This document shows positions 26,087 through 55,654 of a stretch of 61,943 bases of DNA, piece by piece (the stretch's first letter is position 1; the number at the start of each line of letters is the position of its first letter). Under the pieces are notes generated by a model that was not told the DNA's origin, made no database searches, and saw only the letters and a program-made list of their open reading frames with translations. A program made the translations under genes and the position numbers. This DNA is from Thermoplasmata archaeon. GTDB lineage: Archaea > Thermoplasmatota > Thermoplasmata > RBG-16-68-12 > JAFNFQ01. The stretch is from positions 1 to 61,943 of the forward strand of contig JBGPQV010000016.1 of assembly GCA_041489255.1 (NCBI GenBank), written 5' to 3'.

Positions 26087-26127
26087 GCTTTAAAGGGTCT
26101 TGTGTGATTATAGACAAAAGTGCGTCC

Positions 26128-32707: not shown

Positions 32708-32800
32708 TCGGTCAAGTGGAACCAATACGACCGTTAAAAACTTCTGCGACCAAGGTCGAGGGCGGTGTCTGTCGGTGTGCCGCCTGTCCTTACTCGAGCC

Positions 32801-35617: not shown

Positions 35618-35768
35618 GGAACCGCCGCGGCGCGGCTGCCCGACGCCTTCTAAGCACGGAGAATAGAAATACAATGAAGTCAGATGGGACGCTCGCATGC
35701 GAGGGGTTCTGTGCCCGGGGTCACGGAGAAGCGTGCTTGTTTCTGCACTCGTAGTGCTCTCTCTCCTG
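35618..35768 (+). repeat. Duplicated promoter plus signal-peptide segment, copy 2
   Basis: Aligns to 32801-32950. Confidence 0.85.
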
Positions 35769-38700
35769 GCGGTTACTCCTTTAGGGCCAATCCCCTCGGC
35801 CGCGTTGCCTGGAAGAGATTCGTCCGTTCCGTCGATGAGCCAAACCGGACGCGACATCCTCGACATCTTCCATTCCACAGGCGGCTACTTCACCGAGAAT
35901 AGGGGGCAGGTCAACGTTGCGGTGCGCTACTACTCACGAGGGAATCCCGCGGTTGCATTCAGGGACGACGGGGTCATGTTCGTCATGACCAAGTGGTCGG
36001 GAGTCGATGATGCGGCATTAATGCGATCGCCCTTCGGGCGCAATCGGCCTTTCGGTTCATCCGGGCAACTCATCCCGAGTGAGTCGCTGGCTTACATGAT
36101 GCGCTTCGATGGTTCGAACATTGTCCGACCCATCGGTTTGGAGAGACTTCACTTTGACAGCAACTTCTTCATCGGGAGCGATTCCTCGAAGTGGGCGACG
36201 GACGTCCCCAACTATGCTGAGATCGTATATCGCGACCTCTACCAAGGCATCGATCTCTCTTTCCGCATGACAGCCTCAGGACCGAAGTACGAGTTCACGA
36301 TCCAGCCCGGGGCGGACATCAGTGCGATCAGAATTGCACCTGACGGTGTCGAGTCGGTGTCGGTCGACGCCGATGGTGTCGCTATGAGCACGCTGCTTGG
36401 CAGCGTCCGCGATCTCCCGCCATATTCCTTCCAGGAATCAGGCGATCCGATCGCATGCAGCTTCATCCCCCGAGGAAAGGAAGCATACGGATTCGACTGC
36501 GCCTCCTGGGACAGGTCCCGTCGATTGACCATCGACCCGCTGATATACTCGACTTTCCTCGGCGGGAGTTCATCTCGGGAGTACGCGGATTCTATCGCTG
36601 TTGATGATGCTGGTAGTGCCTACGTCACCGGGATGACCTACTCCGCGGATTTCCCTGTCACAGTTGGCGTCATCTACACCAGCTTGAATGGTACGTCGGA
36701 TGCATTCGTGTCGAAGTTGTCTCCAGACGGCAGCACGCTTGAGTATTCCACGTACCTGGGCGGCGGATCAGACGAGTGGACGGCTTCGATCGCCCTCGAT
36801 TCATCTGGTGGCGCTTACGTCGTTGGCGTGACGGATTCTACAGATTACCCCACCACGCCCGGCGCCTACGACACCTCGTACAACGGCGGCTATAACGACA
36901 TATTCGTGACGGAATTGAACCCTACGGGAAGCTCTCTTCTCTATTCCACATACATAGGCGCCTATCTTGAGGAGGTTGGGTACTCCATCGTCCTAGACAG
37001 TTCGCGTCACGCGTACATCACGGGCAAGACATGGTCGGACACCGGTTTCCCGACCACTACCGGTGCCTACGACACGACATTCAACGACAGACCCTCCTAC
37101 AATGATGGTGACGTAATCGTCATCAAGCTCACCCCTGCGGGGGACGATCTTGTCTATTCCACATTCATTGGCGGGGCAGGTTGGGAAGTGGGAATGGCGA
37201 TCGCCTTGGACTCCTCAGGCAACGCTTTCGTGACAGGGGACACTGAGTCGGTCGATTTCCCGGTAAGTCCGGGGGCCATGAACACCACTAGCCTATACCC
37301 CGGAGGCCAAACCTTCGTCGCGAAATTAAACGCCGCCGGGAGTTCCCTGGTCTACTCCGCCTTGATAGGCAGGGCTCAATCGCCTCACGATGGAGGACGT
37401 GCGATCATTGCAGACTCGTTCGGAGCGGTGTATGTGGCTGGGACTACATCGGGTTTCTCGGCGACCGCAGGCGCCTATCAAACGTCGTTCGCAGGTGACA
37501 ACAACGACGGGTTCCTGGCGAAGCTGGATTCCATCGGATCCGCGTTTGCCTATGGCACATATCTCGGCGGCAGCGATGACGACTATATCTATGCTCTCGC
37601 CTTGGACTCTGGCGGAAACGCCTATGTCTCGGGTAGGACGTTTTCTGCAGATTACCCTGTCACCGCTGATGCGTTCGACACAATGCTCGATGGCACGGAT
37701 GCGTTCCTGACTGAGGTGAATCCGACCGGGAGTGCTCTGGTCAACTCGACTTTCTTGGGAGGCAACGATTCTGAATACGGCTATGGCTTGGCTCTTGATT
37801 CATTTGGCAGCGTATATGTCGTCGGACCCACATCTTCCCCGGACTTCCCCGTCACCGCGGATTCGTTCGACGAGACCTACAACGGCTTCGATGATGCGTT
37901 CGTCACCAAACTCGGCCTCGGAGGGGGCGCCAACAAGCCGGATCTTGAGGTCCTTCCCGGTTACATTGTGTTCAGCCCGCCAAGTCCGATCGGCATGGGC
38001 GCCACGGTCAACATCAATGTGATGGTTCACAACGTGGGATTCCGCAACGCGTACAACATCGTCGTCAGGTTCTACGACGGGGCACCAGTTGCGGGAAACC
38101 AGATAGACGGCGATAAGGTCATACCGGTCATCGACATTCATCTCCCGGTCGGCGGAGCCTCTGTCATTTGGCTCGCTGTGCCTCCTAGGTTCCACGACAT
38201 CTGCATCGTTGCGGACCCCGATAATTCCATAGATGAAGTGAACGAGACCAACAACGAAGCCTGCGCGCAGTTAGAGGTGATCATCCCGCCAGTGCCCGAT
38301 CTGACGATTCTTCAGCAGGATGTCCTCTTGTTCCCCGCACCCCCCATCGTCGAGGGGTCGATCGTGCGCATCAACGCAACCGTGCGCAACATCGGAGGGG
38401 TTGCGTCAGGGGCCACGGCTGCAAGGTTCCATGACGGTCTCCCGCCTTCACCGCAGATAGACGTTGACCAGTCACTTGCCACGATGCCTTCCGGGGGGTC
38501 GCAGACCGTTTCCGTTGTCTGGATCGCACTCCCTCCGGGGAGCCACAACCTGTGCGCCATCGCGGACCCGGACAACCTCGTGAGCGAACTGGACGAGGGG
38601 AATAATATGGCTTGCTTCGCGGTAGAGGTGTTACCGGTGACAAAGCCTGACTACCTGCCATTCCAACCGGAGCCGCCATCACCTAGCAGTATCGGTCTCT

Positions 38701-40196
38701 CTCTTCCCATCGTCTTCTCCGTAGTCGTGCACAACCAAGGCAATGCGACCACAGTCAACGAATCGACCCTCGCATTTTGCGACGAGCAGAATCCCGGCAT
38801 TCCATTTGCCGAGTTCAGGGTGAGTCCGCTCCTTCCTGGCAGCGATTCCTCGCGGTATACAGCCACGTGGACATCTCCCGCCATACCCGGGACTTACCTC
38901 GTGTCCGTTGACGTGGACTACTACGATAATGTGAGTGAGTGGGACGAGACGAACAACGTGTACACATGGACGATTGATGTCGCGTCTGCGCCTGTCACCT
39001 TGGCTGACTACGTTCCGACTCAGACCGAGCCGCCCACGCCGCTCAAAATCGGCACCTCTTCCACCGTCCTCCTCTCGTTGCGAGTGCTCAACAAGGGAAA
39101 CGCCACCGCGCAGGCGAACGCCACGATCCTCGCGTTCTACAGCGAACCACCGCCCACTCTGCCTTTTGCAGAGTTCGTGGTTTTCCCTCTTCCTCCCGAT
39201 GGGGTGTCCCCGCGCTACACCGCCGAATGGAGGTCTCCCGCCGTCCCTGGCGTGTACAGCGTGACTGCGGACGTGGACTACTTTGACGACGAGATCGAGT
39301 GGAACGAGACTGACAACCTGCACATATGGATTGTCGAGGTGGTCATCGGTCCTGTCACATCTCTCGTCGTCGGCGCTCCGAACTATACTTCCACCGCGAC
39401 GTACGTGAGGTCTTCCACCGCCCTCGGTCTCTCGGTATCGGACCGTGGCGGGACTGGGATAAACTTCACGAGATATCGGATAGACGGCGGCCAGTGGATA
39501 GACTACGGAGATCAGTTCTTCCTGGCGGGAGAAGGGGAGCACTCCATTGAGTGGTATTCCGAGGACAACGCCGGGAACAGGGAGGACGTAGTTCACAGGG
39601 CACTGCGGGTCGATGACACTCCCCCCTCCACGTCGATATCTCCCGCCAACTGTCCATGCACTGCCGACACATTGTTCACCCTCACTGGCACGGACAGTGG
39701 AAGCGGCGTGAACGTCACCAGGTACAGGATAGACGGCGGCGAATGGACAGTCTACACAAATGGATTCACCGTCCCGGAGGGTGAGCACAACATCTCATTC
39801 TACTCGGTGGACAACCTGAACAACACCGAGCCGGAGAGATGGCTGGTGGTCAAGCCACCGCCCGAGGTGGCAGTGAACTACAAGCCGATCGTGGCTCTCA
39901 CATTCGCAATCATCCTGCTCGTGGCGGGAGTTTGGTCGTCGAAGAAGAGACCGTGGAAGGGCGGGAAGGAGAGGAGGGCGGTGGTAAAGGCGTTCATGCT
40001 CACTTCGATGCCATTTGTGCTCGCAGAGGCGGCAACTGGCGTGGTGTCTTTCCTCACCGGGCAGCTGTCGATACCGCCCCTGGTTGGAGCGGGGACTGCC
40101 GTTGACCTGGCTATTCTCTTGGCCGGAATAGTTGCCGCAATCCTCCGGATAGTGAGGACAAAACCATCAGGAGCAGGGGAAACGGGTACGCCGTAG
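35697..40196 (+). CDS. Surface protein B: SBBP beta-propeller, CARDB repeats, OmpL47-like units, NYKP anchor
   Basis: FTENRGQ N-domain; YST(F/Y)LGG..IA.D..G.AYV.G.T.S.DFP repeats; E..E.NN CARDB ends; C-terminal NYKP domain. Confidence 0.88.
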   Translation: MRGVLCPGSRRSVLVSALVVLSLLAVTPLGPIPSAALPGRDSSVPSMSQTGRDILDIFHSTGGYFTENRGQVNVAVRYYSRGNPAVAFRDDGVMFVMTKWSGVDDAALMRSPFGRNRPFGSSGQLIPSESLAYMMRFDGSNIVRPIGLERLHFDSNFFIGSDSSKWATDVPNYAEIVYRDLYQGIDLSFRMTASGPKYEFTIQPGADISAIRIAPDGVESVSVDADGVAMSTLLGSVRDLPPYSFQESGDPIACSFIPRGKEAYGFDCASWDRSRRLTIDPLIYSTFLGGSSSREYADSIAVDDAGSAYVTGMTYSADFPVTVGVIYTSLNGTSDAFVSKLSPDGSTLEYSTYLGGGSDEWTASIALDSSGGAYVVGVTDSTDYPTTPGAYDTSYNGGYNDIFVTELNPTGSSLLYSTYIGAYLEEVGYSIVLDSSRHAYITGKTWSDTGFPTTTGAYDTTFNDRPSYNDGDVIVIKLTPAGDDLVYSTFIGGAGWEVGMAIALDSSGNAFVTGDTESVDFPVSPGAMNTTSLYPGGQTFVAKLNAAGSSLVYSALIGRAQSPHDGGRAIIADSFGAVYVAGTTSGFSATAGAYQTSFAGDNNDGFLAKLDSIGSAFAYGTYLGGSDDDYIYALALDSGGNAYVSGRTFSADYPVTADAFDTMLDGTDAFLTEVNPTGSALVNSTFLGGNDSEYGYGLALDSFGSVYVVGPTSSPDFPVTADSFDETYNGFDDAFVTKLGLGGGANKPDLEVLPGYIVFSPPSPIGMGATVNINVMVHNVGFRNAYNIVVRFYDGAPVAGNQIDGDKVIPVIDIHLPVGGASVIWLAVPPRFHDICIVADPDNSIDEVNETNNEACAQLEVIIPPVPDLTILQQDVLLFPAPPIVEGSIVRINATVRNIGGVASGATAARFHDGLPPSPQIDVDQSLATMPSGGSQTVSVVWIALPPGSHNLCAIADPDNLVSELDEGNNMACFAVEVLPVTKPDYLPFQPEPPSPSSIGLSLPIVFSVVVHNQGNATTVNESTLAFCDEQNPGIPFAEFRVSPLLPGSDSSRYTATWTSPAIPGTYLVSVDVDYYDNVSEWDETNNVYTWTIDVASAPVTLADYVPTQTEPPTPLKIGTSSTVLLSLRVLNKGNATAQANATILAFYSEPPPTLPFAEFVVFPLPPDGVSPRYTAEWRSPAVPGVYSVTADVDYFDDEIEWNETDNLHIWIVEVVIGPVTSLVVGAPNYTSTATYVRSSTALGLSVSDRGGTGINFTRYRIDGGQWIDYGDQFFLAGEGEHSIEWYSEDNAGNREDVVHRALRVDDTPPSTSISPANCPCTADTLFTLTGTDSGSGVNVTRYRIDGGEWTVYTNGFTVPEGEHNISFYSVDNLNNTEPERWLVVKPPPEVAVNYKPIVALTFAIILLVAGVWSSKKRPWKGGKERRAVVKAFMLTSMPFVLAEAATGVVSFLTGQLSIPPLVGAGTAVDLAILLAGIVAAILRIVRTKPSGAGETGTP

Positions 40197-40445: not shown

Positions 40446-41270
40446 TTAGACATCTTTCACCTTGCTCGACCAAAGCGGGACATTGGGCAATCCGACGGCA
40501 ACTGCATCGCCTCCGCGAATGATGAATGGCGTGCCATCAGCTAACCAAACCAAATAACCGCTGCCGGAGTAGTGAGTCGAGATGCGTTCCACTGTGTTTA
40601 TCTGGTCAATAGGAATTTTCTTCGTCTTCCTTCTCGAGCTAGTCCTTATGGCCTTCGCGAAAACCATTGTTTCGTTCTCGAGTCTGCTCGGTCTCGCGAC
40701 CGTGAATCCGTAATGCTTGCCCACAAGGAGGGGTCTCTTGACGCCCTCCCGGTAGGATTCGCCGAAGGCGGCGCAAATTCGTTCAAGTATCTCGAGGCCA
40801 CGACTCCCAAAACCTTTTTGATCGAGATAGATTCTTGGGCCATCGCGGAGTCTGAGGACTACCCCAAAGGAACCTCTTGGATTATCTTTGAATTCCACTT
40901 CAACGACTTCGGCAAGCGAGATCTCCCAAGTCCATCCTCTCCCCATCCTTCTGAATGGGAACTCCAAGCCCAGGACCCCGTCCCTGATTACTCGCGAGCG
41001 CTCTGAAACTACGAAGAAGACAACAACCATTGCAAAACCAGTTACAATCAGCATCAGCAGTATCCGGGGGATATAACCCACGACGTCATTTATTCCGGAA
41101 AGAAGGGACTGTACAACCAAGTAATCCGACCCAACAACCGCTGCTATGATCGTTCCAGCGACAACGGTTTGTCTAATAGCACGAAGCCGCCTCTGAGCCT
41201 TCGTAGGAACGAATTTCAGGTTGGACAGTTCGGAAACTGGCTTTTTGTCGTCTTGTATTGCTTCAACCAT
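40446..41270 (-). CDS. 2-TM protein with PH-like beta domains; candidate immunity protein
   Basis: Two TM helices, then EISLAEVVEVEF..VVLRLRDG and KIPIDQINTVE..LVWLADG units; GGAGGG RBS; 8-nt overlap with the upstream giant gene. Confidence 0.7.
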   Translation of the reverse strand: MVEAIQDDKKPVSELSNLKFVPTKAQRRLRAIRQTVVAGTIIAAVVGSDYLVVQSLLSGINDVVGYIPRILLMLIVTGFAMVVVFFVVSERSRVIRDGVLGLEFPFRRMGRGWTWEISLAEVVEVEFKDNPRGSFGVVLRLRDGPRIYLDQKGFGSRGLEILERICAAFGESYREGVKRPLLVGKHYGFTVARPSRLENETMVFAKAIRTSSRRKTKKIPIDQINTVERISTHYSGSGYLVWLADGTPFIIRGGDAVAVGLPNVPLWSSKVKDV

Positions 41271-44200
41271 TGTACCCTCCCGTGGCCCAACGAACACCAA
41301 TCAAGGCCAATATGACAAAAGGGGACGAGAAAGTGATAATCTTCTCAAGCATTTTCGCTATATCACTGAGCCAATCCATTGTCTCCATCGCATCCGACTG
41401 AGACCACTTGACATAGTAGAAAAGACCAAAGATAGATACCGCCAATGTGGCAAAATCAACACACATTTTGGCAGGGCCTTTTTGTGGCATCAAGGCAGAT
41501 TGCATCAGGAGCAAAAGCGCAACTACCGAGATTCCGAATCCTATCCATCTTTTCATGAATTCATTCGCAGTCGACATGCTCGATGAAAGTCCTCCGAGCG
41601 AATAGGCGATCATACTGCCAGCGCGCGCCATCATTGATGAGGCAATGCCAAGGCCACTCAGCAATCCCAGGGTTGCGTTCGTCATCCAACTCACTGTCGT
41701 GAGTATCTCCACGGTGATCATGGATAGCGAGCATGCAAGAGTGATACCAGCCAGGAATTGTATCACAAAATCGAGGAATGTCTGTGTAGCTATCTTCGAC
41801 ACGAGCCATGCGAATCCGAGCGTCACAGCTTTGAAGACTATCTCCGCCGCGCGCACGATAAGCGGTAATGCGGCCAAAGCGACCGCCAAGGAGAAGATCG
41901 CCGCAGATACTGCGATAGCCGCTACGAGGAAATCTGCATTATTCTCAAAGCTCTCATACATTCGAATGAGACCGCCAGATATGCTGCTGAGTGCTTCTTT
42001 GAGGATATTCGTTATGGATTCGAGTAAGAATCTCACGGCGGCGGTCAGTACGGCCATCACAAAGTCGATGATCCACTTCACGAACGCCAATATCGCATCC
42101 ACGAACGGCTTCACCACCGTGTCGTAGATGTATTCCAGCCCCTTCCCCTCGGCAATCGCCATCGCCAGCCCTATGCCCCACTTGACCACCGCCGCTACCA
42201 CGTTTGCGATGAACGTGCACACCGCCACGACGGCGTTCCAGACCGCAGACACGAGCCCCGTGAAGGAATTCCACAGCAGCTCCCAGTACGAGGGCTTGCG
42301 GATCGGCGGTGGCGGGACCGAGTGATTCCCGCTGTTCTCCACGGTCATGTTCGGCAGTACGTTCATCAGTGCCTGGTCGAACCCGATGGTGTAGATCTCG
42401 TCCGTGACGACGAGGGGGAAGGAGGTGTCCATGCCCGTGCTGTTCCTCTGCAGCTTGAGTATCCAAGTCCACGCCTCTGCGAGCGTCAGGTTGGCGGCGA
42501 CGAGCTGCTGCACCACCCTAGCGTTCAGCTCGCGCGGGTTGTCGTTGCCCATGATGGTCGAGCCGAGGAGCGGGTTGCCCGGGTGGAACGCCGAGCCGTC
42601 GGAGGAGTTCATCGACGCGAAGAACTCGGACTGCATGAACAGCCCTCTCGGCACGACGATGCCGTTCAGGCCCCTGTCGAGGTAGTTGAGGGCGCGTATC
42701 TCGCCCTGGCTGAGTGAGCGGTTCCAGAGCGTGAGGTCGTCGAAGAAGCCATTGAACAGGGCATCGGAGGCGCACCGCGCGATGCACAGCCTCGTGCTGT
42801 CGAAGGTGGCCAGGCTCGCTGGACTTCCCCAATCGTACGTGTGCATCTTCTCCCCGTCGATGTAGAAGATGGAATACTGGCCGTCGTACGTCAGAGTAGC
42901 GACGTGCCATTCGTTCGGCGGGAGCTTCACATTCGGGGGGTAGATCGTGGTTAATGCTCCGCTTTCCCTCCTCAAAGCGTAGCGCACGGTCCCGGCGGGT
43001 CCGGCCACGCTCATCGAGTACAAGCCCACCCATAGGCCATTCTGCAAGCCCTCAGCATACGCCACGGTCTGGATGACGTTTCCTCCGAGCCACTGAAGTC
43101 TGACCGACAGCGTGAGCTTGGTGACGCCGACGCCGGCACCTTCACTGACCATCAATCGAGCGTCGTTCAGTACCTGGACCGCCAATCCTCGCTGCCCCTC
43201 GACTGGCCTGACATCCGTTACAACCGACGCACCTTCCGCCCTCGCGTAATTGCCGTGGCCCGAGAGATCCTCATACCCCAGGATACCGGCTGCATCCACA
43301 TCGTTGTTTTTCAATCTGGTGTCCATGTCAAGGTCCACTATCTTTGTGTTGACGATTCCGACTTCCCCGTTGCTCAGCGCCCTTCCGTACAACGCGACCT
43401 CGTCAACGACGCCGTCGAAGCAGCTGCCGTCCCAATCCCTGCCTATCTGCACCGGTTCGCTGTTCTCGCCTATCCAGAAGGCGCCTTTCATCTGGGAGAC
43501 CAGCACGCTGTTGCCGAGGTAGATCGTCATATTCATGCCGTCGTACTCGGCGGTGATGTGATACCAAGAACCTTGATCCAGCGGGACGACCGTGGGTGAA
43601 TCGACGATGTAGTCTTGCGAGCCGTTCTTGATTTCGAAACGCAGTCCGTTGGTGCTGCCGAGCCAGCCGATCCGCCAGGCGTCCTTCTTCCCCACCGCCC
43701 AATACCACTTGGCGGAGTCGCCTGTATGGTAGTCGACGTGCGGCATCACCCAGAACGAGATGGTCATTTCGTCCTTGAAATGCAGTTTCGGATTGTCGCT
43801 CGTCTCCAGCCAGTTGTTGCCGTCCTCCAGGTGCACCCCGTATCCCCAGTAGCCTTGCACCTGCGGGAGGGTGCCCCAGCCGGCCCTGTGACCATGGCCT
43901 GTCAGGTCTTTGTAGTACACGGTAGTGCCTATCGTTTCCTTCTGCTCCATGTTCCAGTACGCCTCCGCCCCGCCCGCGTCCATCGTGTTGATGTTGATGA
44001 CCGCGAACCTCTGCTCGCCTACGAATCGATGCGCCCCGGTCGATCCATTCTGGACTGTCGACCAGTCTGTCGGGGTCATGAGGACAGTATTCACCTTGCC
44101 GAACTTGACCGTGCGGATCTCGTAGTACAAGGTCGCGGTCGGCGCGGGCGGTGTGTCCGTACCATAGGAGTATCCCCAGAGTTTGTTGTCGCCTACCGTG

Positions 44201-47200
44201 AAGTTGACGATGACTGACCTGCTCGCGTCGCGCGTCAGGTCAATCTGCACCTGACCGTTCGGGTCATTGCGGAAGGCGCTGATGACTACCATGGCCCATT
44301 TCCTGTCGTCCGGCACATTGACGGCGAGGTAATGGGCGGGTCTCTCTCTGAGGCTGTTGATTGGCGCCTCTGAGCCAATTGTGTACTTGCCGTTAACACC
44401 GACCTCGCTCCACGCCGTGCATGTGTACTGCTCCGGGCAATCGTCCACTCCATAGAGCTGCTTCACCGTCACTTGAACGATGAGGTCGTGCAACGGGTCC
44501 AGGTCGACGCCGTCGTTGAAACCGTCCCCGTCGGTGTCCTTCTTCGTCGGATCGGTGCGAAGGACCTTGGTCTCGTTTCCATCCGGCACTTTGTCTCCAT
44601 CGGTGTCCGCAATCGTCGGACTCGTGTAAAAACCGGTCAGGCCCTTCACTTCTCCCCCGTCGGAAAGGCCGTCTTTGTCCGTGTCGGGATAGAGGGGGGA
44701 AGTGATTTCGACACGATCCACCTCCGCCTCGAACACCCAGACCTTTCCCAAGCCACTCCCCCTCTGTATCTGCAGACTGTGCATCCCCTTCGCCATCGAC
44801 GAAACGAAGTTGAAGGACTGATTGCTCCAGCCGTTGCTCGTGTTTTTCGTCACCTTCTGCTGCCCGTCGACGTAGACCTGGGCAGACACGCTGCCACCCT
44901 GCGCAAGGGCGGTCGTCCTGATGGAAAAGGAGTATCGCGCGAACGCGTTCACGGTGATGTTCATCGTGACATTGGCTAGGTAGCCGGGGGCGGAGTTGTT
45001 CCTGTACTGGAAGCTGTAGAGCTCGTCGTAGTCGGTCAGCCCGTCACGGTCCGTGTCCGGGTCGTTGACCGCGGTATGGTAGACGCACGCCTCGTCGTAG
45101 TCCGAGAGGCCGTCCCCGTCCGTGTCGTTTGACTTGGTCCACGACTCTATCCTGGTGTACTGCCAGTAGGCTATCTCGGAGGGGAGGCCGGTCCGCTCCA
45201 CCTTCATCGTCTTCGGGCCGGAGCAGAAGCTGACGTCGAACGAGAAGTCCCGCTGCCAGCCAGGCGGGACCGACGTCTTGTTTATCCAGACATCCTCCTC
45301 CAGGTGCCCGATCTTGTGGTTCTGCTCGAAAGCGCCAATCACAACTTGGACCAAGGTGTTGTTCACGTAGAAATCCTGTTCAGAGAACTGGTACCCGGAG
45401 TTGCTCTGGTCAAAGTCCCCGCGAGACCTGCCCTCGAACCTGTACGTGCCCGACGTGTAGGCGGGGAAGTTGAAACTTATCGGCGGGGTGCCGTTGGGGA
45501 GCGTCTGGGAGGGGTAACTCTGCGTCTCCCCATACTCAGTCTGGTGGTCACCGTCCTGGTCCGGCTCGGCCCACATCCTGTCGACGAACAGCTGTACTGT
45601 GAAGTGCAGCATCACGTTCAGCTGCGCGCTGCCGTAGTAGTCCCGGTAAAATGAGGCGTTCGTCCTGTAGGTGCCGGTGTGCCACTGGCTGTCGCCCAGG
45701 GTGTCCCCCAGGATCTCGTAAGCGCCGTCGTGCCACTGCTCCACGTGTCCGGTGGCCATCGCCTTGTAGGTCAGATAGACTACGTATCCGGAATCGATGA
45801 GGGGCGCGCTCAGGTAGACCTCGGCGCCGGGCTGGGCCTGCCTCACGAGCCTCCCGTCCAGAATCGTGATGGGATCCCACTGCCCGTTCGGGTAAAGGCT
45901 CATCCCGGGGTCGTGGAGCCAGAGGAAGTTGTCCCCCGTCACCCCGACCTCGTCGAACCAGCGAACTATGTGCATCGAGGCGTAGGAGAACTCGTTCACC
46001 GCATACGCGACGAACCTCACCAGCACGTTCATGCCGGGAACGAACGGATAGGCGTCGTAGTAGGCAGACTGGTTCGTGTTGAAGTGGTTGTCCGTGCTGA
46101 ACGAGACCAGCCTGGCGATCTCAACCCAGGCGGTGCCCGTGTACTGCTCGACGCTCAGGCTGGTCACGTCTCCCTTGAAGCGGAAATCGACGTTGTAGGT
46201 CGCGCCCGTGTCCGGTATGTTGAGGATCAGCTCGCTGTGGTTCAGCCCGTTCTTGTATCCGTTTCCAGTGTCCGCCCATCCAGGTCCCGTGAGAATCCCG
46301 GGCGAGTGGAATAGCGCGTCACTGTCGTCGCTGCCGTGGCCGACGTACGTCGAATAGCCGTAGGCCACCGCCGAGATGTTGTCCACCTTGACGGGCGAGC
46401 TGAAGCGCATGGCGACGTTTATGCCGAACGTGGAGGGAAGTTTGTCGTAGAACATCGTGTGGTCGAGGACGAAGCTCCATGTCCACCAGTTGGCCTTCCC
46501 GGGCAGGGTGGTCACGTTCACCCACCCAGCGCCGTTGTACACGGAGAGGTTCGAGTCGGCCGACGCGTAGTATTGGAACGTCAGGAGGTAGTCGGTGTAC
46601 TTCTCATGGGAATTGCGGTACAGGTTGAGGTAGAAGACGGCGTTGGCTGACGCGTTCCGGTACCACGGGTTGTTGTTCATGTTCCAGAAGGTTCCCCGTG
46701 ACTGCCCGTTCCAGCGCGCGGGCTGTCCCCATCCCGTGGTCGAATCGATCGAAAGACCGGGCAGGTTACCCAGAAGGATTGCGTCTCCCTGTGAACCCGC
46801 CTGGGCCCCCACGTCGCGGACGAGCCTGTCCGGCCCGCCTCCGGTGACGTTGAACGTGAGCCCGTAGTAGCCGAACAGCGGGCCATTCGTTGCGAAATAA
46901 CGGACCTCGAGGTACCAGAGGCCGGGCGTGGTGGCGGTGAAGACGATGGTCTCCTTCAGCCCGAACCCGCGCATCTGCGAGGACGCCATCATCTGGCTGT
47001 TCGGCCCGTACAGGTAGAGGTCGAGGTCCATATATGGCGGGGGGACCAGCTGAGCCCGTATCGTCTGGTTCCCGAAGGCGATGAACCTGTAGAAGTCGTA
47101 GGGGTCGGCGGGCGGGGGCGGTGGCGGCGGAGGCGCGAGTCCCTGGATGCGTCCGGTGTAGGCGCCAGGCTCTATCGGGAGCGCGAAGGGAATCGAGTTG

Positions 47201-50200
47201 CCCGCGTCCTGACCGCTCCCCGCGTCGTTGGGCGCGTAGGCGGTCAGGAAGATGTTCATCAAGGAGACATTCGTGTCGTTCAGGTTTGTCACCGTGGACG
47301 ACTCCGCCCTGCACTTGTAGACTGTGTCAGGCAGGAGGCCCGCCAGGTTGACCGAGTGTGAGGTGCCATTGGCGCCGGTCGCCGTGTACTCCCAAATCGA
47401 GTTCTTGCCGTACCTCACGACGCTTGTGCCGGCGATGTTCGTGTTCCACGTGATCGTGGCGGTGGTCTGACCGATGCTGGGGATCTGGACGTTCGACACT
47501 AGGATCCCCTTGGTGGTGAACGTTCTGTCGAGACCTGTGGCGGTGTCGTTCGCGTTCGCGAGGGCCGTCGACTCGACTCGGAAGTGGTAGGTGGTGTTGG
47601 AGAGGAGGTTCGAGATCGCTATCGAGTGCAACGTGCCGCTGGAGCCGGTCACGTTGTTCGTGTAGTTCGATGTCGACCCGCAGCGGACGACCGAGGTGCC
47701 GTTGTAGTTGCTCTCCCACGAGATCGTCGCCGAGCTTGTGGTTGCGTTCACGGTGATGTTGTAGACGCTGATGGGGGGCGTTCCGAAGGGCACTCCCGCC
47801 ACCGCATCGGTGTCGTTAGCGTTCGCGAGACCGACCGACCTGGCCTGGAAGAAGTAGGTGGTGGCGCTCTTCAGGTTCCACAGCGTGACGTTGTGCGTCT
47901 TCCCGGAAGTGCCGTTCACCTGGGAGCCGTACAGCGTCGTGTTGCCGAATCGTACCTCGGAAGTCGCGTTGCGCGTGGTGTTCCACGACATCTTGACGTA
48001 GTAGGAGCCGCCCGCGAACGCCGCCTTGGCCTGCGTGAAGTTCTTGATGAAGAGGTGGCTTGTGAAGTTCATGTCTCCGCTCCTAATCCACAGTGCGGAA
48101 TCGGAGATGGCGGCAGACTCCATCTGGACGTGGTAGGTGTTCCTCGGGTCGAGTCCCGTCAGGTTCACCTCGTGGAACGTGCCGTTCGCTCCCGTGGCGG
48201 TCAGGCCGTAGTCCTCCGTCGTGTTGTACCTGACCAGCGAGGTCGAGGGGAGGTTCGTCTCCCACCAGACGGTCACGTTGCTTGCCGAGGTCGCGTAGTA
48301 GTCCATGTCCTTGATGACCACCCCGGTGTAGAAGCTGTCGTAACACTGCCACATCGGAGGCGGGGGCGTCGTGAACAGGACGGCCTGGACGCCGTAGTAG
48401 TATGTGGTGTTCGCAGTCAATCCCGAGATGGTCACGTTGTACGGGGGGCCGTATGCGAGGATCTGGTTCCCCATGGTGACGTTGGGACCCCAGTTGAGCC
48501 AGGTGGCGTACGCGTTGGGCGGGTCTGTCTCCCAGTCGACCCTGGCTGTCGTCGAGGTGATGTCTGATACCGTTATGTTGAACACCGGGGCGTAGGCGGA
48601 GTACTGGAAACCGGTGTCGGGAGGGAGAGGCTCGTCTGCCGTAATCCCCCATCCGCCACCGCTCCTCGTCCCATCGCTTTGCGAGGGCGGGTCCAGCTCG
48701 CGCAGCATGAGGTGGAACGACCATGCGAGGTGACGCTGCGCCTCCGGCTCGACGAGGAGGTCGTCGCTCCCGCTTCCGCCGAGGCTCCCGTCCATCCTGG
48801 GAATGATATCGTTCCGGATCTTCATCGCGGCCGCCTGCTCCTCGCTCATGGCGATCAGCGGATACATGTCCCTGAGAAGTTGGAGGAAGGACGCCCGGCT
48901 CGTCTCCTGCGGTGTGGCGAAGGAGGAGAGCGGAAGTCTACCGGCATAGACGAGGATGCTCCCGATAAGCGGTCTGTGCAACGCCAGATCCCCGTCCATG
49001 TAGACCTCGGAACGAGCGTTCCTCCTGTCCTGCCAGAAGAGGTATGCATGGCCCGCGCTGTCGACCGCTGCCGCAGGCAGGACCGCGTCAGACTTGCTGT
49101 AGGAGAGCCTCACTGCCGTTCGCACCGGGATTCCCAAATCCATGAGCACGCTGCCGTACAGCTGCCATGGCCCGAGCCCGTCGTCCTGCCACACAAAGAA
49201 CAGGCGGCCCGTGGCGTTTGCCGCCAGCTCCGGATGGCGGGCGTTGCTCTTACCGTCGGTCAGGGCGACGGAGGAAGTCCAGCTGACACCGCCGTCCGCG
49301 CTCTTCGCCGCGAAGACCCGCGCCACCCCGCTCCTCGTCTCGCTCCACGCGGCCACGATCCGCCCCCTGAAGGATGCGAAGGCGATGGAGTCGGGCGTGA
49401 GCGTGCCCGTCACGAGTGAGACCAGGTGCGCCCCATCCACGCGGCCGGAGGACAGATCGACGGAGGAATGGAGGATCGTCATGCGTCCCTGAATCAGTTC
49501 GTTCCAGAGGACGTGCAGCGACACGCCGCTGACGATGATGGAGAACGCGGAGCCCGAAGTGACGAACGACAGCAGGTCGCCCACAGGTCCCTGGGTGACA
49601 GTGGAGTATGAGAGCCTCAGGACCCTCAGGTACGTCGCGCCGTTGACCCAGTCGTCCTGGAGGAAGGCGAGAATCATGTCATCGCCCTGGAAAGCGACCC
49701 TTGGCTGGCTCCCGAACTCCACGAATGTCGTCCTCTCCCACTTCACACCGCCATCCGCCGAGTGGCGGAATACGACGGCCCTGCCCGTGTGGTTGTTCAC
49801 GTTCACGATGGAGTCCCATGACACGACCACGTGAACCCCATCGGATGATGCTGCGACCGATGGTCGTCCCGGTCTGACTCCTGCGTCCGAGAGGCGCCTG
49901 TCCCCAGTGAACGAATCGCCCCCGTCATCGCTCCTCTTGTAATACACCGCATTGGAGCCGGTCCTCGAGTCGATCCAAGCGAGGTGAAGGACGCCGTCCC
50001 CGGCCGCCGCGGCAGAGGGGGCGAGCGAATCGCCCTCGCCAAATGCAACGGGCCTCGACGACTCCCAGTCCTCCCCGATCGCGCCGTTCCCGGCGCCCCC
50101 AGCAACGTCGGCAGGCGCGCCCGCGCGCTGCACTTGCTGGAACACCACGATCACCATCACCGCGACACAAAACAAGCTACCCAGCTTGACGCTCAATGGA

Positions 50201-50205
50201 CGCAT
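41263..50205 (-). CDS. Giant (~2980 aa) secreted multidomain protein with a hydrophobic C-terminal domain; candidate toxin or adhesin
   Basis: Signal peptide, Asp-box SxDGG propeller, about 5 FN3, PPC, DTDGDGLSD Ca-binding repeats, 2 LamG, ~340-aa amphipathic/TM tail. Confidence 0.85.
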   Translation of the reverse strand: MRPLSVKLGSLFCVAVMVIVVFQQVQRAGAPADVAGGAGNGAIGEDWESSRPVAFGEGDSLAPSAAAAGDGVLHLAWIDSRTGSNAVYYKRSDDGGDSFTGDRRLSDAGVRPGRPSVAASSDGVHVVVSWDSIVNVNNHTGRAVVFRHSADGGVKWERTTFVEFGSQPRVAFQGDDMILAFLQDDWVNGATYLRVLRLSYSTVTQGPVGDLLSFVTSGSAFSIIVSGVSLHVLWNELIQGRMTILHSSVDLSSGRVDGAHLVSLVTGTLTPDSIAFASFRGRIVAAWSETRSGVARVFAAKSADGGVSWTSSVALTDGKSNARHPELAANATGRLFFVWQDDGLGPWQLYGSVLMDLGIPVRTAVRLSYSKSDAVLPAAAVDSAGHAYLFWQDRRNARSEVYMDGDLALHRPLIGSILVYAGRLPLSSFATPQETSRASFLQLLRDMYPLIAMSEEQAAAMKIRNDIIPRMDGSLGGSGSDDLLVEPEAQRHLAWSFHLMLRELDPPSQSDGTRSGGGWGITADEPLPPDTGFQYSAYAPVFNITVSDITSTTARVDWETDPPNAYATWLNWGPNVTMGNQILAYGPPYNVTISGLTANTTYYYGVQAVLFTTPPPPMWQCYDSFYTGVVIKDMDYYATSASNVTVWWETNLPSTSLVRYNTTEDYGLTATGANGTFHEVNLTGLDPRNTYHVQMESAAISDSALWIRSGDMNFTSHLFIKNFTQAKAAFAGGSYYVKMSWNTTRNATSEVRFGNTTLYGSQVNGTSGKTHNVTLWNLKSATTYFFQARSVGLANANDTDAVAGVPFGTPPISVYNITVNATTSSATISWESNYNGTSVVRCGSTSNYTNNVTGSSGTLHSIAISNLLSNTTYHFRVESTALANANDTATGLDRTFTTKGILVSNVQIPSIGQTTATITWNTNIAGTSVVRYGKNSIWEYTATGANGTSHSVNLAGLLPDTVYKCRAESSTVTNLNDTNVSLMNIFLTAYAPNDAGSGQDAGNSIPFALPIEPGAYTGRIQGLAPPPPPPPPADPYDFYRFIAFGNQTIRAQLVPPPYMDLDLYLYGPNSQMMASSQMRGFGLKETIVFTATTPGLWYLEVRYFATNGPLFGYYGLTFNVTGGGPDRLVRDVGAQAGSQGDAILLGNLPGLSIDSTTGWGQPARWNGQSRGTFWNMNNNPWYRNASANAVFYLNLYRNSHEKYTDYLLTFQYYASADSNLSVYNGAGWVNVTTLPGKANWWTWSFVLDHTMFYDKLPSTFGINVAMRFSSPVKVDNISAVAYGYSTYVGHGSDDSDALFHSPGILTGPGWADTGNGYKNGLNHSELILNIPDTGATYNVDFRFKGDVTSLSVEQYTGTAWVEIARLVSFSTDNHFNTNQSAYYDAYPFVPGMNVLVRFVAYAVNEFSYASMHIVRWFDEVGVTGDNFLWLHDPGMSLYPNGQWDPITILDGRLVRQAQPGAEVYLSAPLIDSGYVVYLTYKAMATGHVEQWHDGAYEILGDTLGDSQWHTGTYRTNASFYRDYYGSAQLNVMLHFTVQLFVDRMWAEPDQDGDHQTEYGETQSYPSQTLPNGTPPISFNFPAYTSGTYRFEGRSRGDFDQSNSGYQFSEQDFYVNNTLVQVVIGAFEQNHKIGHLEEDVWINKTSVPPGWQRDFSFDVSFCSGPKTMKVERTGLPSEIAYWQYTRIESWTKSNDTDGDGLSDYDEACVYHTAVNDPDTDRDGLTDYDELYSFQYRNNSAPGYLANVTMNITVNAFARYSFSIRTTALAQGGSVSAQVYVDGQQKVTKNTSNGWSNQSFNFVSSMAKGMHSLQIQRGSGLGKVWVFEAEVDRVEITSPLYPDTDKDGLSDGGEVKGLTGFYTSPTIADTDGDKVPDGNETKVLRTDPTKKDTDGDGFNDGVDLDPLHDLIVQVTVKQLYGVDDCPEQYTCTAWSEVGVNGKYTIGSEAPINSLRERPAHYLAVNVPDDRKWAMVVISAFRNDPNGQVQIDLTRDASRSVIVNFTVGDNKLWGYSYGTDTPPAPTATLYYEIRTVKFGKVNTVLMTPTDWSTVQNGSTGAHRFVGEQRFAVININTMDAGGAEAYWNMEQKETIGTTVYYKDLTGHGHRAGWGTLPQVQGYWGYGVHLEDGNNWLETSDNPKLHFKDEMTISFWVMPHVDYHTGDSAKWYWAVGKKDAWRIGWLGSTNGLRFEIKNGSQDYIVDSPTVVPLDQGSWYHITAEYDGMNMTIYLGNSVLVSQMKGAFWIGENSEPVQIGRDWDGSCFDGVVDEVALYGRALSNGEVGIVNTKIVDLDMDTRLKNNDVDAAGILGYEDLSGHGNYARAEGASVVTDVRPVEGQRGLAVQVLNDARLMVSEGAGVGVTKLTLSVRLQWLGGNVIQTVAYAEGLQNGLWVGLYSMSVAGPAGTVRYALRRESGALTTIYPPNVKLPPNEWHVATLTYDGQYSIFYIDGEKMHTYDWGSPASLATFDSTRLCIARCASDALFNGFFDDLTLWNRSLSQGEIRALNYLDRGLNGIVVPRGLFMQSEFFASMNSSDGSAFHPGNPLLGSTIMGNDNPRELNARVVQQLVAANLTLAEAWTWILKLQRNSTGMDTSFPLVVTDEIYTIGFDQALMNVLPNMTVENSGNHSVPPPPIRKPSYWELLWNSFTGLVSAVWNAVVAVCTFIANVVAAVVKWGIGLAMAIAEGKGLEYIYDTVVKPFVDAILAFVKWIIDFVMAVLTAAVRFLLESITNILKEALSSISGGLIRMYESFENNADFLVAAIAVSAAIFSLAVALAALPLIVRAAEIVFKAVTLGFAWLVSKIATQTFLDFVIQFLAGITLACSLSMITVEILTTVSWMTNATLGLLSGLGIASSMMARAGSMIAYSLGGLSSSMSTANEFMKRWIGFGISVVALLLLMQSALMPQKGPAKMCVDFATLAVSIFGLFYYVKWSQSDAMETMDWLSDIAKMLEKIITFSSPFVILALIGVRWATGGYNG

Positions 50206-51303
50206 TCTTCCTCCTCTCCATTGCGGCGGCCCACTCCGCATTTTGCCGCGGGGGGCACAAGAGCCACGCGGTTTATAATGCTTTGCCCGACAAGTTCCGC
50301 AAGAGCCCTGAAACCGATTCTCATGAAGGCGCCTGGAGTACCGGTGAAGAAGGCCACGCCCCTCGCTGCGGCTAACGCCTTTAAATCCTTATCAGACAAG
50401 GCAATCGCGTTGCCATTGCGCTACGGCTGGCAACGGGAGTTGCGTTCCTCCTATACGCTGGCGCATTCCTCTTCCAGGAAGTGATTGCACGCGTGACGGG
50501 TTGGACCATGGAGAGAACCCCTGGCAGGGCGAAACGTAGGAGGAAGCGCTGAGGGAGTCAAAGAACGCCCTTCAATCGAAAGGGACATTCCTAGCAATGG
50601 TGGCGGCCCACCTACAGCGACGCACATCACGGAAGGCCTTTGAGACTGAGAACGAACTGGCATTGAAAGGTGGTAAATGGCCCGAAACAGACCTGTGCAG
50701 TGTATCATGACGGCCTCCCGATTGTCACCGCATGCATTCTCTTGCCTAGTCAGCACCGCTGAAAACCACCCCAGCGATCGAGATATTGGATTTCCGAGAC
50801 ATCCGGAGGAATCCAAGTCCTTTCAACTTACTCTCGGCGGTTTCATTTAACGATTGTCAATGCGACAGTAGGTTCAGACCGCCCGGCTTCTGCAAAACGA
50901 CCCAGCTCATCTGCGCCCACTGTGTGCATCCGATGCGGTGAGTCAAGGGAGAACATCGTCCGCAACGCTATCATCGCCGATAGCCTTGCCGAAAACAACC
51001 TCAATCTTCCCCAGTTCGCTTTTTCGGGATGACGTACACGATCTCCATCGTGGGGGCTGCAAAGTTCTCGTACGTCACCATGGCGACTCCTCAAAGGGAA
51101 TTTTCCTTGCAGCCGAATTCTCCCTCAGCCATCTTCTCTACCCCGTGACGGTCCACTTTTGGGATGCAGCGACGCTCAAGACCGCCCGAGATGAAGACGG
51201 AGTCTCCCTGCGGCGATTACTGAATTGTGAGAGGGGTGAGCCGATCTGGAGTATCACGAACCCTCCGCAAGGATTATGACCGAGTCCGTGGTGGCATGCT
51301 GCG

Positions 51304-52256: not shown

Positions 52257-55200
52257 CTAGACAGCGGACTTCTCCTTGTCTCCGAGAGACTTCCTCGTCG
52301 TCCTCAGGAGCGAGAACAGCAGTCCGACTGCTAGGATGGCGCTGTCCACGCCAGTCCCCCATCCGACGAGGGGAGGTATCCTGAGAGGCTCGAAGTAGAT
52401 GGAGATGAGGCCTGTGGCCGCCTCCGCCGAAATGAACGGCAAGGCCAGAACGGCCCAGGAAAGGAGGAACCTCTTTCTCTGGCCATTGCCCCAGGGCAGT
52501 GGGCGCTTTCTCGCTGAGTATGCTGCCGCAAAGATCAGGATGACGGAAAAGAGCAGGGCGACCAAAGGCTTGTAGTTGAACTCCACACGTCCCTCCGGAG
52601 GCGTCTCAGATCCGACCACTTCCACCGGGAGGCTCTTCTCGACCGAGTTGTTCAGGTTGTCCGATGACCTGTACTCTATCAGGTGATGCCCTATGCCCAA
52701 GGTGAACGAGGAGGAGTATGGAGTCCAATCTCCGCCGTCTGTCCTGTACTCCACTGATGCGACACCGCTTCCTTGTCCGTCGTCTGCGGAGATGGTGAAG
52801 TGAGTGTTCACAAGGACGGTCGACTCCTCTGGATCGATCGAGAGGGATGGGGCAGCGTTGTCCAAGACGAGGGTGACGTTCTGGACTGCTTCCCTGTTCC
52901 CGAGGAAGTCGAACGAGAGAAATTCGACGAACCACATCCCGTCTCTTCCTACTAGGCTGAAGGAGGAAGTGTACTCCCGCCACTGAGACCAAGTCCCGTT
53001 CCAGAGGCGGTAGAATGTCGAGTTGGTGCCGACAGGCATCAATCCGCCATCATCTGCATGAAGAGTCAGGGGAGTGGATGACTTGGTGAAGTTACCGCCG
53101 ACCAGGTACTTCGGGTCGCCGATTGATAAGGTTGTGGCGGGAGGAGTGTTATCGACCCTCAGCACCCGCCACGAGATGTCCTCGACGTTGCCGACATTGT
53201 CCTCGGAGTAGTACTCGACGTAGTGATTGCCCTCGCCGGAGAGGAAGAACGAGAATGAGTGTTCAATCCACGTGACGTTGTCTATCCTGTACCAGGTGTG
53301 GTTGATGCCCGAGCTGCTTTGGTCCAAGGCGGAGAGGTCGAGGGGGGTGGAGGACCTGACGTATGCTGTTGCGGCGATGTAGTTGGGCTGACCGATGACG
53401 AGTGAGGTGACCGGGCCGGGCACGACGTTGAATGTCCAAGTATAGTTGTTGTTTGTCTCGTTCGACTCGGTCATGTTGTCATAGTAGTCGACGTTCGCAA
53501 CGACGCGACAGGTGCAGGGTGTGGCGGGAGATGTCCAGTTAGCGGTGAAGGGGCCTGAGATGATTCCGGCAGGGATGGACGGTATCTCCGCCGTGAAGAA
53601 CGGGGAGGAGGGCCGCGATTCGTTGTAGAAAGCAAGGGTGGAGGTGACGTTTTCGAAGCCTCCTGCGTTCAGCACCTCGATGGACATCTGGAGGGGCAGA
53701 GAGAGGCCGATGGTGGCGGGCGAAGACGGGAGTAGACTAACGGGCGCATAGTCCGGCGGGACCCGATAGCCTGCAATCGCCTCCGCGTAGTCCTTCCTTC
53801 CCTCGACGTTCCTCGCCACGTCACGGGCAATCGTGTGGAACTTGTAGTGGCCCTCGCCATCGGGGAATGGGAACGTCCAGGACCAAGGTCCCGCCGTCTT
53901 CGTTTCAAGGGGGGTCCACAGAGTCCACGATGAGTTGTCAAGAGGAGCATATGAATAGAGCATGGTTACTTCCGCGACTCCGCTCAGGCTGTCTGTGGCG
54001 GTGGCGTTGACGACCATGGGAGGGGAGCTGTACCAGTATGGTGATGTCGGCAGTGCCGCGGAGACTGGCGGTGTGATGTCGTAGCCCGCGATTGAGTCAG
54101 CGGACAGAGGAGGAGGTTCGGTGTTGCCTACGTTGTCCACAGAGGTAGTGTAGAACTCGTAGTATCCCTCTCCATCTGGAAATGTGAATGACCATGACCA
54201 AGGAGCCGAAGCAAGAGTGGAGTACTGTGTCCACAATCCCCAGGTCGAGTTGTCAACGCTTTGGCGGTACCATAGTGTGACGCTGGCGACGCCGGAGCAG
54301 GAGTCCGACGCCGATGCGTCCACGACCAACGGGGACGAGTTGCGCCAGTACATGCCCGTCAGTGTGGCGGACGACGAGGGCGGCGTGGCGTCAAGACCCC
54401 CACGGTAGGCGTATCGCAGTTCAGATGCCGTGGCGTTTATCCACTCGTAGGCGATGTGCACGCCGTCGCACCCGTCCACTGCGATTGAAAGAGGATACCA
54501 AGTGCCTTCCTGGGTGTCGACTGTCGCCAGAACCCAACTCATGCCGTTCCACTCCGCATAGTACAGGAGGGGAGGAGGAGTGTTGTGTTCTCCGGCAGTG
54601 TATGCGATGTGTGGCCGATTCAGGGTATCGACGGCTATGCTCGAATACGTTCCACGCCACGGGTAATCCACCGATTGAGCCATCCACCCCAAGAGTCCGC
54701 GGGTTGCATACTCGAGCCGATCGTCCGGTGTCACCCTCCTGAAGGATACGTGTGGTGTCTGGGTGGAGTCCAGAACCATCGAGGGTAAGTCCCCAGTTTC
54801 TCCGCCGCCGATGATGTGCTCAACAACCTCGTCCACCCATGAGGACCCGCTCCAATAGGCAAAATGCAGAGCATAGTTTGAATACGCGATTCGCGGGCGA
54901 TCCGAGGAGTCCAAGGCCAGCGAGAGACCGAATTGACCAGTGTAAGATCCGAACGTATCGAGAGAACTCAATGTCGAGATATCCCACCCAGTCCCGTTGT
55001 GAATCGCGTACCTAATCGACCAGTTTACCGCCAAAGGAGCGACCCACTGGTACGCTATGTGAGGCCTGTCAAGCGAGTCTATCGCCAGGCTTGGCTGGTA
55101 GCCCACGTTGCCCTGATTGTCAACTACCTCGTAGTACCAAATCCCGCCCTCCTTGTGCGAGTACTTCAGGACTTGGTTCACTTCATCCCTGTACGCGACG

Positions 55201-55574: not shown

Positions 55575-55654
55575 TCCTCTCTGGTTTATTGTCACGCCTT
55601 CTTAGACGATAAAAGTATTGGCGGGAGGCAGTGAAAACCGCCCCCCGGGGCAGG

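Follow-up and report, generated by a model that had tools for sequence, protein, structure and literature searches.

A giant archaeal surface-protein gene with a conserved junction and an exchanged polytopic C-terminus: a candidate polymorphic membrane cassette system in Thermoplasmata

A contig of a Thermoplasmata archaeon (GenBank assembly GCA_041489255.1, contig JBGPQV010000016.1, positions 1 to 61,943, referred to below as the window) encodes a giant surface protein whose C-terminal membrane domain appears to have been exchanged as a cassette together with the gene that follows it. The giant open reading frame (ORF) lies on the minus strand at 41263..50241, with its stop codon at 41263-41265, and comprises 2992 aa when read from the ATG at 50241, from which all residue numbers are counted. 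It consists of a large carrier ectodomain, a conserved junction and a variable polytopic tip, and is followed directly by a gene for a protein with two transmembrane (TM) helices. The tip and this coupled 2-TM gene make up a block of about 1.6 kb (42033-40446) with a low GC content at third codon positions (GC3), which is joined to the native high-GC3 carrier at about codon 2736. The cassette architecture of carrier, junction and exchanged tip is very probably the correct reading of the comparisons described below. A toxin and immunity function of the tip and the 2-TM protein, argued by analogy, is a possibility that we hold with some doubt, and the explanation as a whole, an archaeal polymorphic C-terminal cassette system with a membrane effector and its protector, comes close to being probable without reaching it.

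The break in composition within the giant ORF is sharp. Overall GC content is 0.58–0.64 at 42150-43200 and 0.46–0.52 at 41100-42150. Measured per 30 codons, GC3 is 0.87–0.97 up to codon 2730 and 0.43–0.63 beyond, and measured per 100 codons it is 0.73–0.93 for segments starting at or before codon 2651, with one exception of 0.69 (start codon 2301), and 0.54–0.59 from start codon 2751 on. In a single-change-point model the best GC3 change point lies after codon 2736 (~42034; interval of two log-likelihood units, codons 2725-2742), with values of 0.84 before and 0.55 after it, and its log-likelihood ratio is 53.1, whereas 200 shuffled versions averaged 2.5 and did not exceed 6.7. The drop in GC that an earlier sequence-only reading of the window had located near 42050 is confirmed by this analysis. 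The GC3 of the carrier (~0.84) resembles that of the core genes (0.82–0.91; valyl-tRNA synthetase (ValRS), 0.89). Hydrophobic coding alone is insufficient to account for the drop, because the conserved helices upstream of it (residues 2641-2730) keep a GC3 of 0.87–0.90; as these helices are equally hydrophobic, a by-product of hydrophobic coding was ruled out. No meaningful repeats flanking the cassette and no terminator-like site were found in the window.

Similarity to close relatives is lost within the few codons of the GC3 break. Residues 2641-2992, used as query in an exhaustive search, gave 53 proteins with E ≤ 0.001, 23 with E ≤ 1e-10 and six with E ≤ 1e-30, of 71–2774 aa in length, and BLASTP aligned all but one of these (52 of 53), the remaining match, P0053, being a repeat protein. 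Many of the relatives are 35–70% identical to the query from about residue 2520 and their alignments end at residues 2743-2768, as for P0009, which is 70% identical with an alignment end at residue 2744; other relatives, with 21–32% identity, align as far as residue 2991. The alignment columns are strongly conserved to about residue 2743 and collapse beyond it. A search with the whole protein identified two carrier orthologues, P0057 (2949 aa, 57% identity, 99% coverage) and P0058 (2961 aa, 55% identity, 97% coverage), along with the more distant giants P0055, P0039, P0059, P0041 and P0060-P0062; giants that are named and weakly similar carry the labels Thermoplasmata or Methanomassiliicoccales. 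In most 50-residue segments the carrier is 40–80% identical to P0057 and P0058. The identity between the query and P0057 per 50 residues is 0.38–0.78 along the carrier and 0.62–0.72 at residues 2523-2720, followed by 0.16, 0.12, 0.08, 0.08 and 0.22, and that between the query and P0058 is 0.64–0.80 at residues 2503-2700, 0.44 in the segment at 2703 and 0.14–0.26 thereafter. P0057 and P0058 differ from each other in the same way, with an identity of 0.84 at residue 2660 and of 0.14–0.28 afterwards. The expectation that relatives would align up to the KWIIDFV helix and then diverge, with a GC3 breakpoint at the same place, was borne out on both counts: orthologue identity drops after residues 2722-2745, and the coincidence of the GC3 change point with the end of homology places the recombination junction at 42016..42069 on the minus strand (codons 2725-2742). 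An abruptly different C-terminus on the same carrier among close homologues (0.62–0.84 falling to 0.08–0.28 at residues 2722-2745) is a feature of polymorphic toxin systems, as is a variable domain that acts as one cassette with the adjacent gene, to which the shared GC3 of 0.55 against 0.84 and an 8-nt gene overlap correspond. In a simple C-terminally anchored adhesin the anchor would be conserved with the carrier in orthologues, which is not the case here. A first, broader alignment of relatives was too diverse for a search pattern to be derived from it, and two scans of genome contigs for homologue DNA, with the patterns [ML]NVL[PA]N[MV]TV with WN[ST]FTG[LM][LV][SE], and WNA[VA]VAV[AC][TMQ], gave 53 and 13 pattern matches, none of which was confirmed by tblastn.

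The exchange of tips extends across the family. Fifty members, including the query, have a conserved junction end and at least 200 aa beyond it, and their tips are 224–277 aa long (median 245). Single-linkage BLAST clustering divided these tips into 15 clusters with sizes of 20, 7, 6, 3, 2, 2 and 2 and eight singletons, and an earlier pass with 43 tips had given 18 clusters. A junction at least 60% identical to that of the query (60–76%) occurs in 18 members, every one of which has a tip of another cluster, and the six members that share the query's tip cluster (P0005, P0012, P0014, P0020, P0022 and P0023) have junctions that are 23–40% identical and tips that are 25–31% identical to the query's. 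Judged by sequence cluster, these pairings show that tips assort independently of junctions and carriers across the family, and the arrangement in which the carrier stays constant, the junction is conserved and the tip can be exchanged is well supported by the alignments. Since the junctions of the same-cluster members are only 23–40% identical, the query's tip comes from a remote part of the family, in keeping with its foreign composition. In profile comparisons of ten tip classes, the query's class matched the nine others with probabilities of 0.2–9.5% and is classed as unrelated to them, whereas classes B1, B2 and B3 are related at 93–98%, G and H at 82%, and B2 and D as well as B3 and G at 69%. 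The possibility that all tips form one fast-diverging family is partly true for some classes and was rejected for the query's class, which matches none (≤ 9.5%). A read of the tip out of frame was likewise ruled out by its six homologues.

A break at exactly the point where the sequence repeated across the family ends could also be produced by an assembler joining the carrier at its conserved junction to the tip of another locus or strain, and the 61,943-base window may itself be an assembled contig. Such a chimera is nevertheless highly improbable, because high-GC3 core genes flank the join (ValRS with 0.89 on one side, the carrier with 0.84 on the other) and because the same break separates P0057 from P0058, two proteins of other assemblies. 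The frame stays open through a tip that has homologues, the downstream protein is recorded on two contigs, and the paralogous junctions, which are 47–77% identical in protein, have probably diverged too far for an assembler to merge them.

The junction, or "pre-tip," spans residues 2530-2736 (42034..42654, minus strand) and is kept across 39–40 relatives. It is made up of a soluble part (PRGLF...TVENSGN), a PPPP hinge (residues 2643-2646) and two long Trp-marked hydrophobic helices ending in ...VKWIIDFV. Of its tryptophans, Trp-2653 is conserved in 38 of 39, Trp-2657 in 32 of 39 and Trp-2668 in 37 of 40 aligned relatives. The tip follows as residues 2737-2992 (41266..42033, minus strand; GC3 0.55), which belong to tip cluster 2 and contain five hydrophobic stretches. 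Junction helices and tip together give seven merged hydrophobic stretches on the Kyte-Doolittle scale across residues 2659-2986, in agreement with the six to seven hydrophobic helices that had been described behind the PPPP hinge. All 50 tips of the family have three to five hydrophobic stretches, an estimated four to six TM helices and a grand average of hydropathy (GRAVY) of 0.60–1.17 and, by these predicted properties, are many sequence types of one physical type. An AlphaFold2 model of residues 2520-2992 (40 alignment rows) is entirely helical, with a predicted local distance difference test (pLDDT) score of 69.4 and a predicted template modeling score of 0.43, and shows three long helices of 47–63 residues and five to seven shorter ones, the junction helices lying at model residues 133-179 and 182-244.

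Searches with the tip did not lead to any known family or fold. Foldseek comparison of the model with the PDB gave no match with E ≤ 0.001, and its top matches (best E 0.95), which were to designed helical bundles and TolQ/MotA, were discarded as generic helix matches, as was a lone PDB profile match with an E of 0.041. The best ESM Atlas score for the tip, 0.79, is below the usable level. Neither the junction and tip nor the downstream protein belongs to a family in Pfam (to E 10), NCBIfam (to E 1), PADLOC or PHROGs; the sole rows, both sub-threshold and both over the TM hairpin, were for DUF2975 (E 0.015) and for a GPH symporter (E 0.03). None of 40 family members scanned has a Pfam family in the junction or tip, and four of the 40 have LamG_3 upstream.

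The downstream gene (40446..41270, minus strand; GC3 0.55) is closely coupled to the giant ORF. Its ATG at 41270 overlaps the giant's stop by 8 nt, and a ribosome-binding-like site, GGAGGG (41275..41280, minus strand), lies 5 nt before this ATG, within the giant ORF near its end. The 274-aa product has two hydrophobic stretches (residues 35-54 and 62-92), so that the overlapping 2-TM gene noted in the sequence-only reading is correctly described, and a beta-rich domain of about 180 aa. Both ends of the protein probably face the cytoplasm, because basic residues flank both TM helices. Modeled alone from its single sequence, the protein gave a poor AlphaFold2 prediction (pLDDT 50.4), in which residues 24-100 are helical, residues 107-174 form strands and then a helix, and residues 224-252 form strands; a PH-like domain would be a guess from this strand-then-helix pattern. 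ESM Atlas scores of 0.93–0.94 were obtained to unnamed clusters and to one DUF6585 ("RDD") cluster, without confirmation by an HMM search.

The junction and tip occur on very different proteins. They are found on giants that share the query's domain set (P0057, P0058 and P0055) and also on proteins of 760–1675 aa that have TSP3 only, Big_7 and TSP3, LamG only or no Pfam domain at all, and short forms of 350–560 aa consist of hardly more than junction and tip. Several short forms of ~450–590 aa (P0004, P0006, P0009, P0011, P0013, P0035, P0037 and P0152-P0156) have a conserved leader with the pattern Cys-x2-Cys...His-Glu...Cys, which neither the window nor the giants contain. Upstream of this leader, several short forms show a near-invariant stretch, ...GYGWPATLELLSPP..., through which some ORF calls run and which may be translated conserved non-coding DNA. 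Equal recorded contig sizes link the giant P0057 with P0151 and P0153 (24,314), P0055, P0059 and P0041 with P0005 (201,245), and P0152 with P0010 (119,771). P0151 and P0057 share 76% identity across 319 aa, up to residue 2737 of P0057 and no further, and the junction of P0005 is 72% identical to that of P0041. The short forms look like the stand-alone cassettes of polymorphic toxin loci, although their own leader and start codon are unlike those.

These observations can be arranged into a mechanism. A giant surface carrier, exported by the Sec pathway, ends in the ~210-aa junction followed by a replaceable polytopic tip of ~245 aa. The conserved junction would serve as a homologous-recombination handle by which tip-partner cassettes are swapped, and the tip and the next gene would travel as a single cassette. 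The tip would work within a membrane, an ionophore or pore-like effector being its likeliest role, and the 2-TM protein would bind it inside the membrane of the producer and so neutralize it, the outcome being strain-specific competition or kin discrimination between contacting cells. The sequence-only reading had proposed a membrane-damaging competition system; its constant carrier and swapped C-terminus, joined by the junction, are upheld by the divergence of homologues and the GC3 break at one codon, and its competition role stays at the tentative strength given above. A more specific version, which we regard as doubtful, is an archaea-specific contact weapon or identity system without a bacterial scaffold, in which an adhesin-presented ionophore passes from membrane to membrane, the 2-TM protein neutralizes it, and new cassettes are drawn from arrays of short forms with their zinc-knuckle-like leader. 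The touching cells would plausibly be wall-less relatives within or near Thermoplasmata.

A number of observations weigh against the effector and protector reading, and several of these concern the partner and its cassette. The only relative of the downstream protein recovered by a word-indexed search, among 1819 candidates, was the protein itself. It is larger than the CdiI-type immunity proteins, which, in the part of the source available (PMC3482391), have two TM helices only, and its soluble domain of ~180 aa is additional. A complex prediction of the tip with the downstream protein scored 0.44 (runs of 0.47, 0.44 and 0.44, agreeing in at least 49% of contacts, with a partner pLDDT of at least 61) against 0.00 for the best of three controls and passed a mark reached by 58 of 80 solved complexes and two of 110 mismatched pairs, but passing scores of 0.60 or lower came from just seven of the 80 solved complexes and from both passing mismatches, and by the tool's counts most passes at this level are wrong unless the prior is strong. 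The prediction gives a small rise in the odds of tip-partner pairing and is not evidence of binding. The placement of short forms beside giants on shared contigs is deduced solely from equal contig sizes. No orphan cassette was found in the window, where tblastn with the tip and with the short-form leaders returned the gene itself only (next E values: tip, 1.0; leaders, 0.1).

The same pair of proteins could instead form a membrane-embedded identity or recognition pair that is no toxin, in which the tip and the 2-TM protein report self versus non-self after contact or membrane mixing. IdsD and IdsE of Proteus would be a parallel for such a pair. The tips are uniform in length and topology yet fall into many sequence clusters, the variation sits inside membrane helices, the adhesion-type ectodomain could provide the contact, and the difference between the complex score and its three controls would lend the pairing slight support. 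On the other hand, the tip classes appear unrelated rather than allelic, the partner has no relatives with which co-variation could be compared, and the route of transfer is not known, so that we rate such a pair as distinctly improbable, more so than the anchor or signaling end considered next.

Further points against the effector and protector reading concern the tip and its delivery, which is the main weakness: Sec export should insert the five to seven hydrophobic stretches into the membrane of the producer itself, and the family scans detected no release or cleavage domain in the giant. Uniform size and hydrophobicity of the tips are expected of a structural membrane domain, contrast with classical polymorphic toxins, in which enzyme tips of various kinds occur, and fit an in-membrane identity pair and a modular anchor or signaling end equally well. 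None of the trafficking, repeat or pre-toxin domains of polymorphic toxins (Rhs/YD, FHA, LXG, PT-VENN, PT-TG and others) was found in the Pfam and NCBIfam scans, and the junction is family-less in 40 of 40 members. Three large secreted proteins of the window with BNR, CARDB, SBBP and Big domains, at 32879-35584 (plus strand, 901 aa), 35697-40196 (plus strand, 1499 aa) and 52257-55595 (minus strand, 1112 aa), share a C-terminal module of about three hydrophobic stretches with the motif ...LSIPPLVGAGTAVDLAIL..., which looks like a second, conserved multi-TM ending of surface proteins in this genome. The argument that the giant has far more hydrophobic helices than an anchor needs is weakened by this module and by the likeness in size and hydrophobicity of all 50 tips.

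Seen in this light, the tip could be a polytopic anchor or membrane-signaling end of an adhesin or receptor that is exchanged by recombination and plays no part in conflict, the 2-TM protein being a membrane partner whose soluble domain would lie in the cytoplasm. Strong hydrophobicity is typical of integral membrane domains, multi-TM endings are also used by the other surface proteins just described, nothing was found that would release the tip, and the class-2 tips, to which that of the query belongs, hold polar residues (R, E, K and D) fixed at set positions, as a working membrane protein would. Purifying selection should, however, make an anchor track its carrier, whereas each of the 18 close junctions is joined to a tip from a different cluster than the query's; the composition of the tip and of the next gene is foreign; and several paralogues and short forms seem to share a contig, as in toxin arsenals. 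An anchor or signaling end is, on balance, unlikely.

The carrier itself is of a familiar adhesion type. Its start is either the ATG at 50241 or an alternative in-frame ATG at 50205, directly after GGAGAGGAGG, from which the protein has 2980 aa; the secreted protein of about 2980 aa in the sequence-only reading corresponds to this second start. A TATA-like ATTATAAA lies 5' of the ORF at 50279-50272. Residues 13-41 (50119..50205, minus strand), a Kyte-Doolittle stretch with a basic start, a hydrophobic core and ...RAGA, form a putative signal or anchor segment, taken here to be a signal peptide with predicted cleavage. The ectodomain (residues 42-2529; 42655..50118, minus strand) contains BNR-like, fn3, four Pur_ac_phosph_N and PPC-like stretches, Asp-rich calcium-type repeats and two LamG domains. 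Matches to Laminin_G_3 (E 2.3e-30, two stretches), Pur_ac_phosph_N (5.9e-19, four stretches) and fn3 (4.1e-11) are clear, and DTDGDG... repeats of the Asp-rich calcium-binding type are readable in the translation, where residues 1824-1914 match CglD locally (E 8.8e-9). Of the adhesion domains previously proposed, FN3 and LamG are confirmed by these matches and the calcium-type repeats by inspection of the translation, whereas the "Asp-box propeller" and PPC are sub-threshold only (BNR_2, 24.1 bits against a cut-off of 31.4; PPC, 22.1 against 25.9). The ~1 kb upstream of the giant ORF (50242-51303; GC 0.52–0.59) contains no convincing gene, its sole ORFs being 50451-50816 and 50843-51094 with a GC3 of ~0.50. 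An Rfam scan of the window, including this interval, gave no match, and tRNA genes were also not found.

Elsewhere in the window, archaeal markers are present in the form of an exosome operon of the Rrp4/Rrp41/Rrp42 type, a Cbf5-type pseudouridine synthase (DKCLD and PUA) and an EMC3/TMCO1-like insertase. Large surface proteins are unusually abundant; one more, at 17426-22321 (plus strand), is a secreted protein of 1631 aa (PKD, NosD/beta-helix, Big_3_3) with a single C-terminal TM anchor and an intermediate GC3 of 0.65. A Ras-family small GTPase (24804-25412, plus strand; Pfam Ras 4.6e-35, Roc 8.3e-28) adjoins ValRS. The stretch at 25523-32839 has a lower GC3, with genes at 0.51–0.65 against 0.82–0.91 in the core, and includes, at 31712-32839, a gene with a SIR2_2 domain (Pfam 2.2e-7; best PADLOC SIR2 model 7.1e-9). 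Two further large genes of this stretch, at 29049-30929 and 26633-28873, belong to no family, and the second shows weak LmuB/JetC-like matches. This stretch may be a defense island adjoining the cassette.

Among known systems, the ionophore toxins of contact-dependent inhibition (CDI) offer a close comparison. In the part of the source available for E. coli (PMC11630599), CDI ionophore tips are membrane-spanning helical bundles, and a hydrophobic, highly polymorphic CdiI encoded directly downstream protects against the cognate toxin only. Shared with the present locus, as far as that part describes them, are a large surface carrier, a conserved motif before a variable C-terminus, a helical tip capable of spanning the membrane, a hydrophobic downstream protein and many mutually exclusive sequence types. 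The CDI tip is described there as a five-helix bundle, whereas here a tip of ~245 aa, with five to seven hydrophobic stretches, is accompanied by a partner with an extra soluble domain of ~180 aa. A match in sequence or fold is absent, and the present locus belongs to a single-membrane archaeon. Pfam gave no matches to the CdiA filamentous haemagglutinin (FHA) repeats, the VENN/PT-VENN pre-toxin domain or CdiB, and TVENSGN in the junction is a mere local resemblance to VENN. Pore-forming colicins have helical membrane-active C-terminal domains of fixed size and specific small membrane immunity proteins, and their pore domains keep a single hydrophobic hairpin buried within a soluble bundle, whereas the tips described here are hydrophobic throughout. 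No match to a colicin pore-forming domain was obtained in Pfam even to E 10, in PDB profiles (best E 0.041) or with Foldseek (best E 0.95). The absence of an Rhs or haemagglutinin scaffold, as the sequence-only reading had it, agrees with the Pfam and NCBIfam scans, in which no such domain, no other known toxin scaffold and no cleavage or release domain was detected.

The polymorphic toxin systems of Zhang et al. (2012; PMC3482391) resemble this family, in the part of the source available, in that recombination diversifies the C-termini, another gene follows immediately and apparent stand-alone cassettes share the pre-tip region, and two-TM immunity families, Imm-CdiI and Imm17, are listed among them. 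Their tips are described there as diverse enzymes, whereas here a single physical type is found, polytopic and of 224–277 aa. The short forms in the present family, with their own Cys-x2-Cys...His...Cys leader and start codon, are also unlike the cassettes of polymorphic toxins. To our knowledge, predictions of archaeal polymorphic toxins lean on bacterial-type scaffolds. Such systems had been predicted in archaea without experimental characterization as of 2021, according to the part of the source available (PMC8416519). Literature searches, whose coverage did not extend to the 2019 survey of archaeal polymorphic toxins (Makarova et al., mBio), found no description of the junction and tip family. 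A family without a match in Pfam, NCBIfam, PADLOC, PHROGs or the PDB bears the evolutionary signature of polymorphic toxins, with an integral membrane domain as its variable part. If it is a weapon, it would be a first archaeal membrane-acting polymorphic toxin, and the passage of a polytopic domain from cell to cell would become a question in itself; otherwise, it would be a clear case of cassette exchange within the membrane part of a surface protein, which calls for an explanation of its own.

The nearest archaeal parallel is VARTIG of the Thermococcales, a large surface protein with a recombining hypervariable C-terminal Ig domain followed by variable genes that include membrane proteins (PMC8416519). 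In the part of that source available, its function is given as unknown and its authors report no counterpart outside Thermococcales. A C-terminal Ig domain of the arCOG07710 type was not found by Pfam in the giant protein, whose variable part is helical and hydrophobic. The layout of a large surface protein with a recombining C-terminus is common to both, but the variable part is an Ig domain in VARTIG, as described there, and a polytopic membrane domain on a carrier of the LamG/fn3/TSP3 type in the family reported here.

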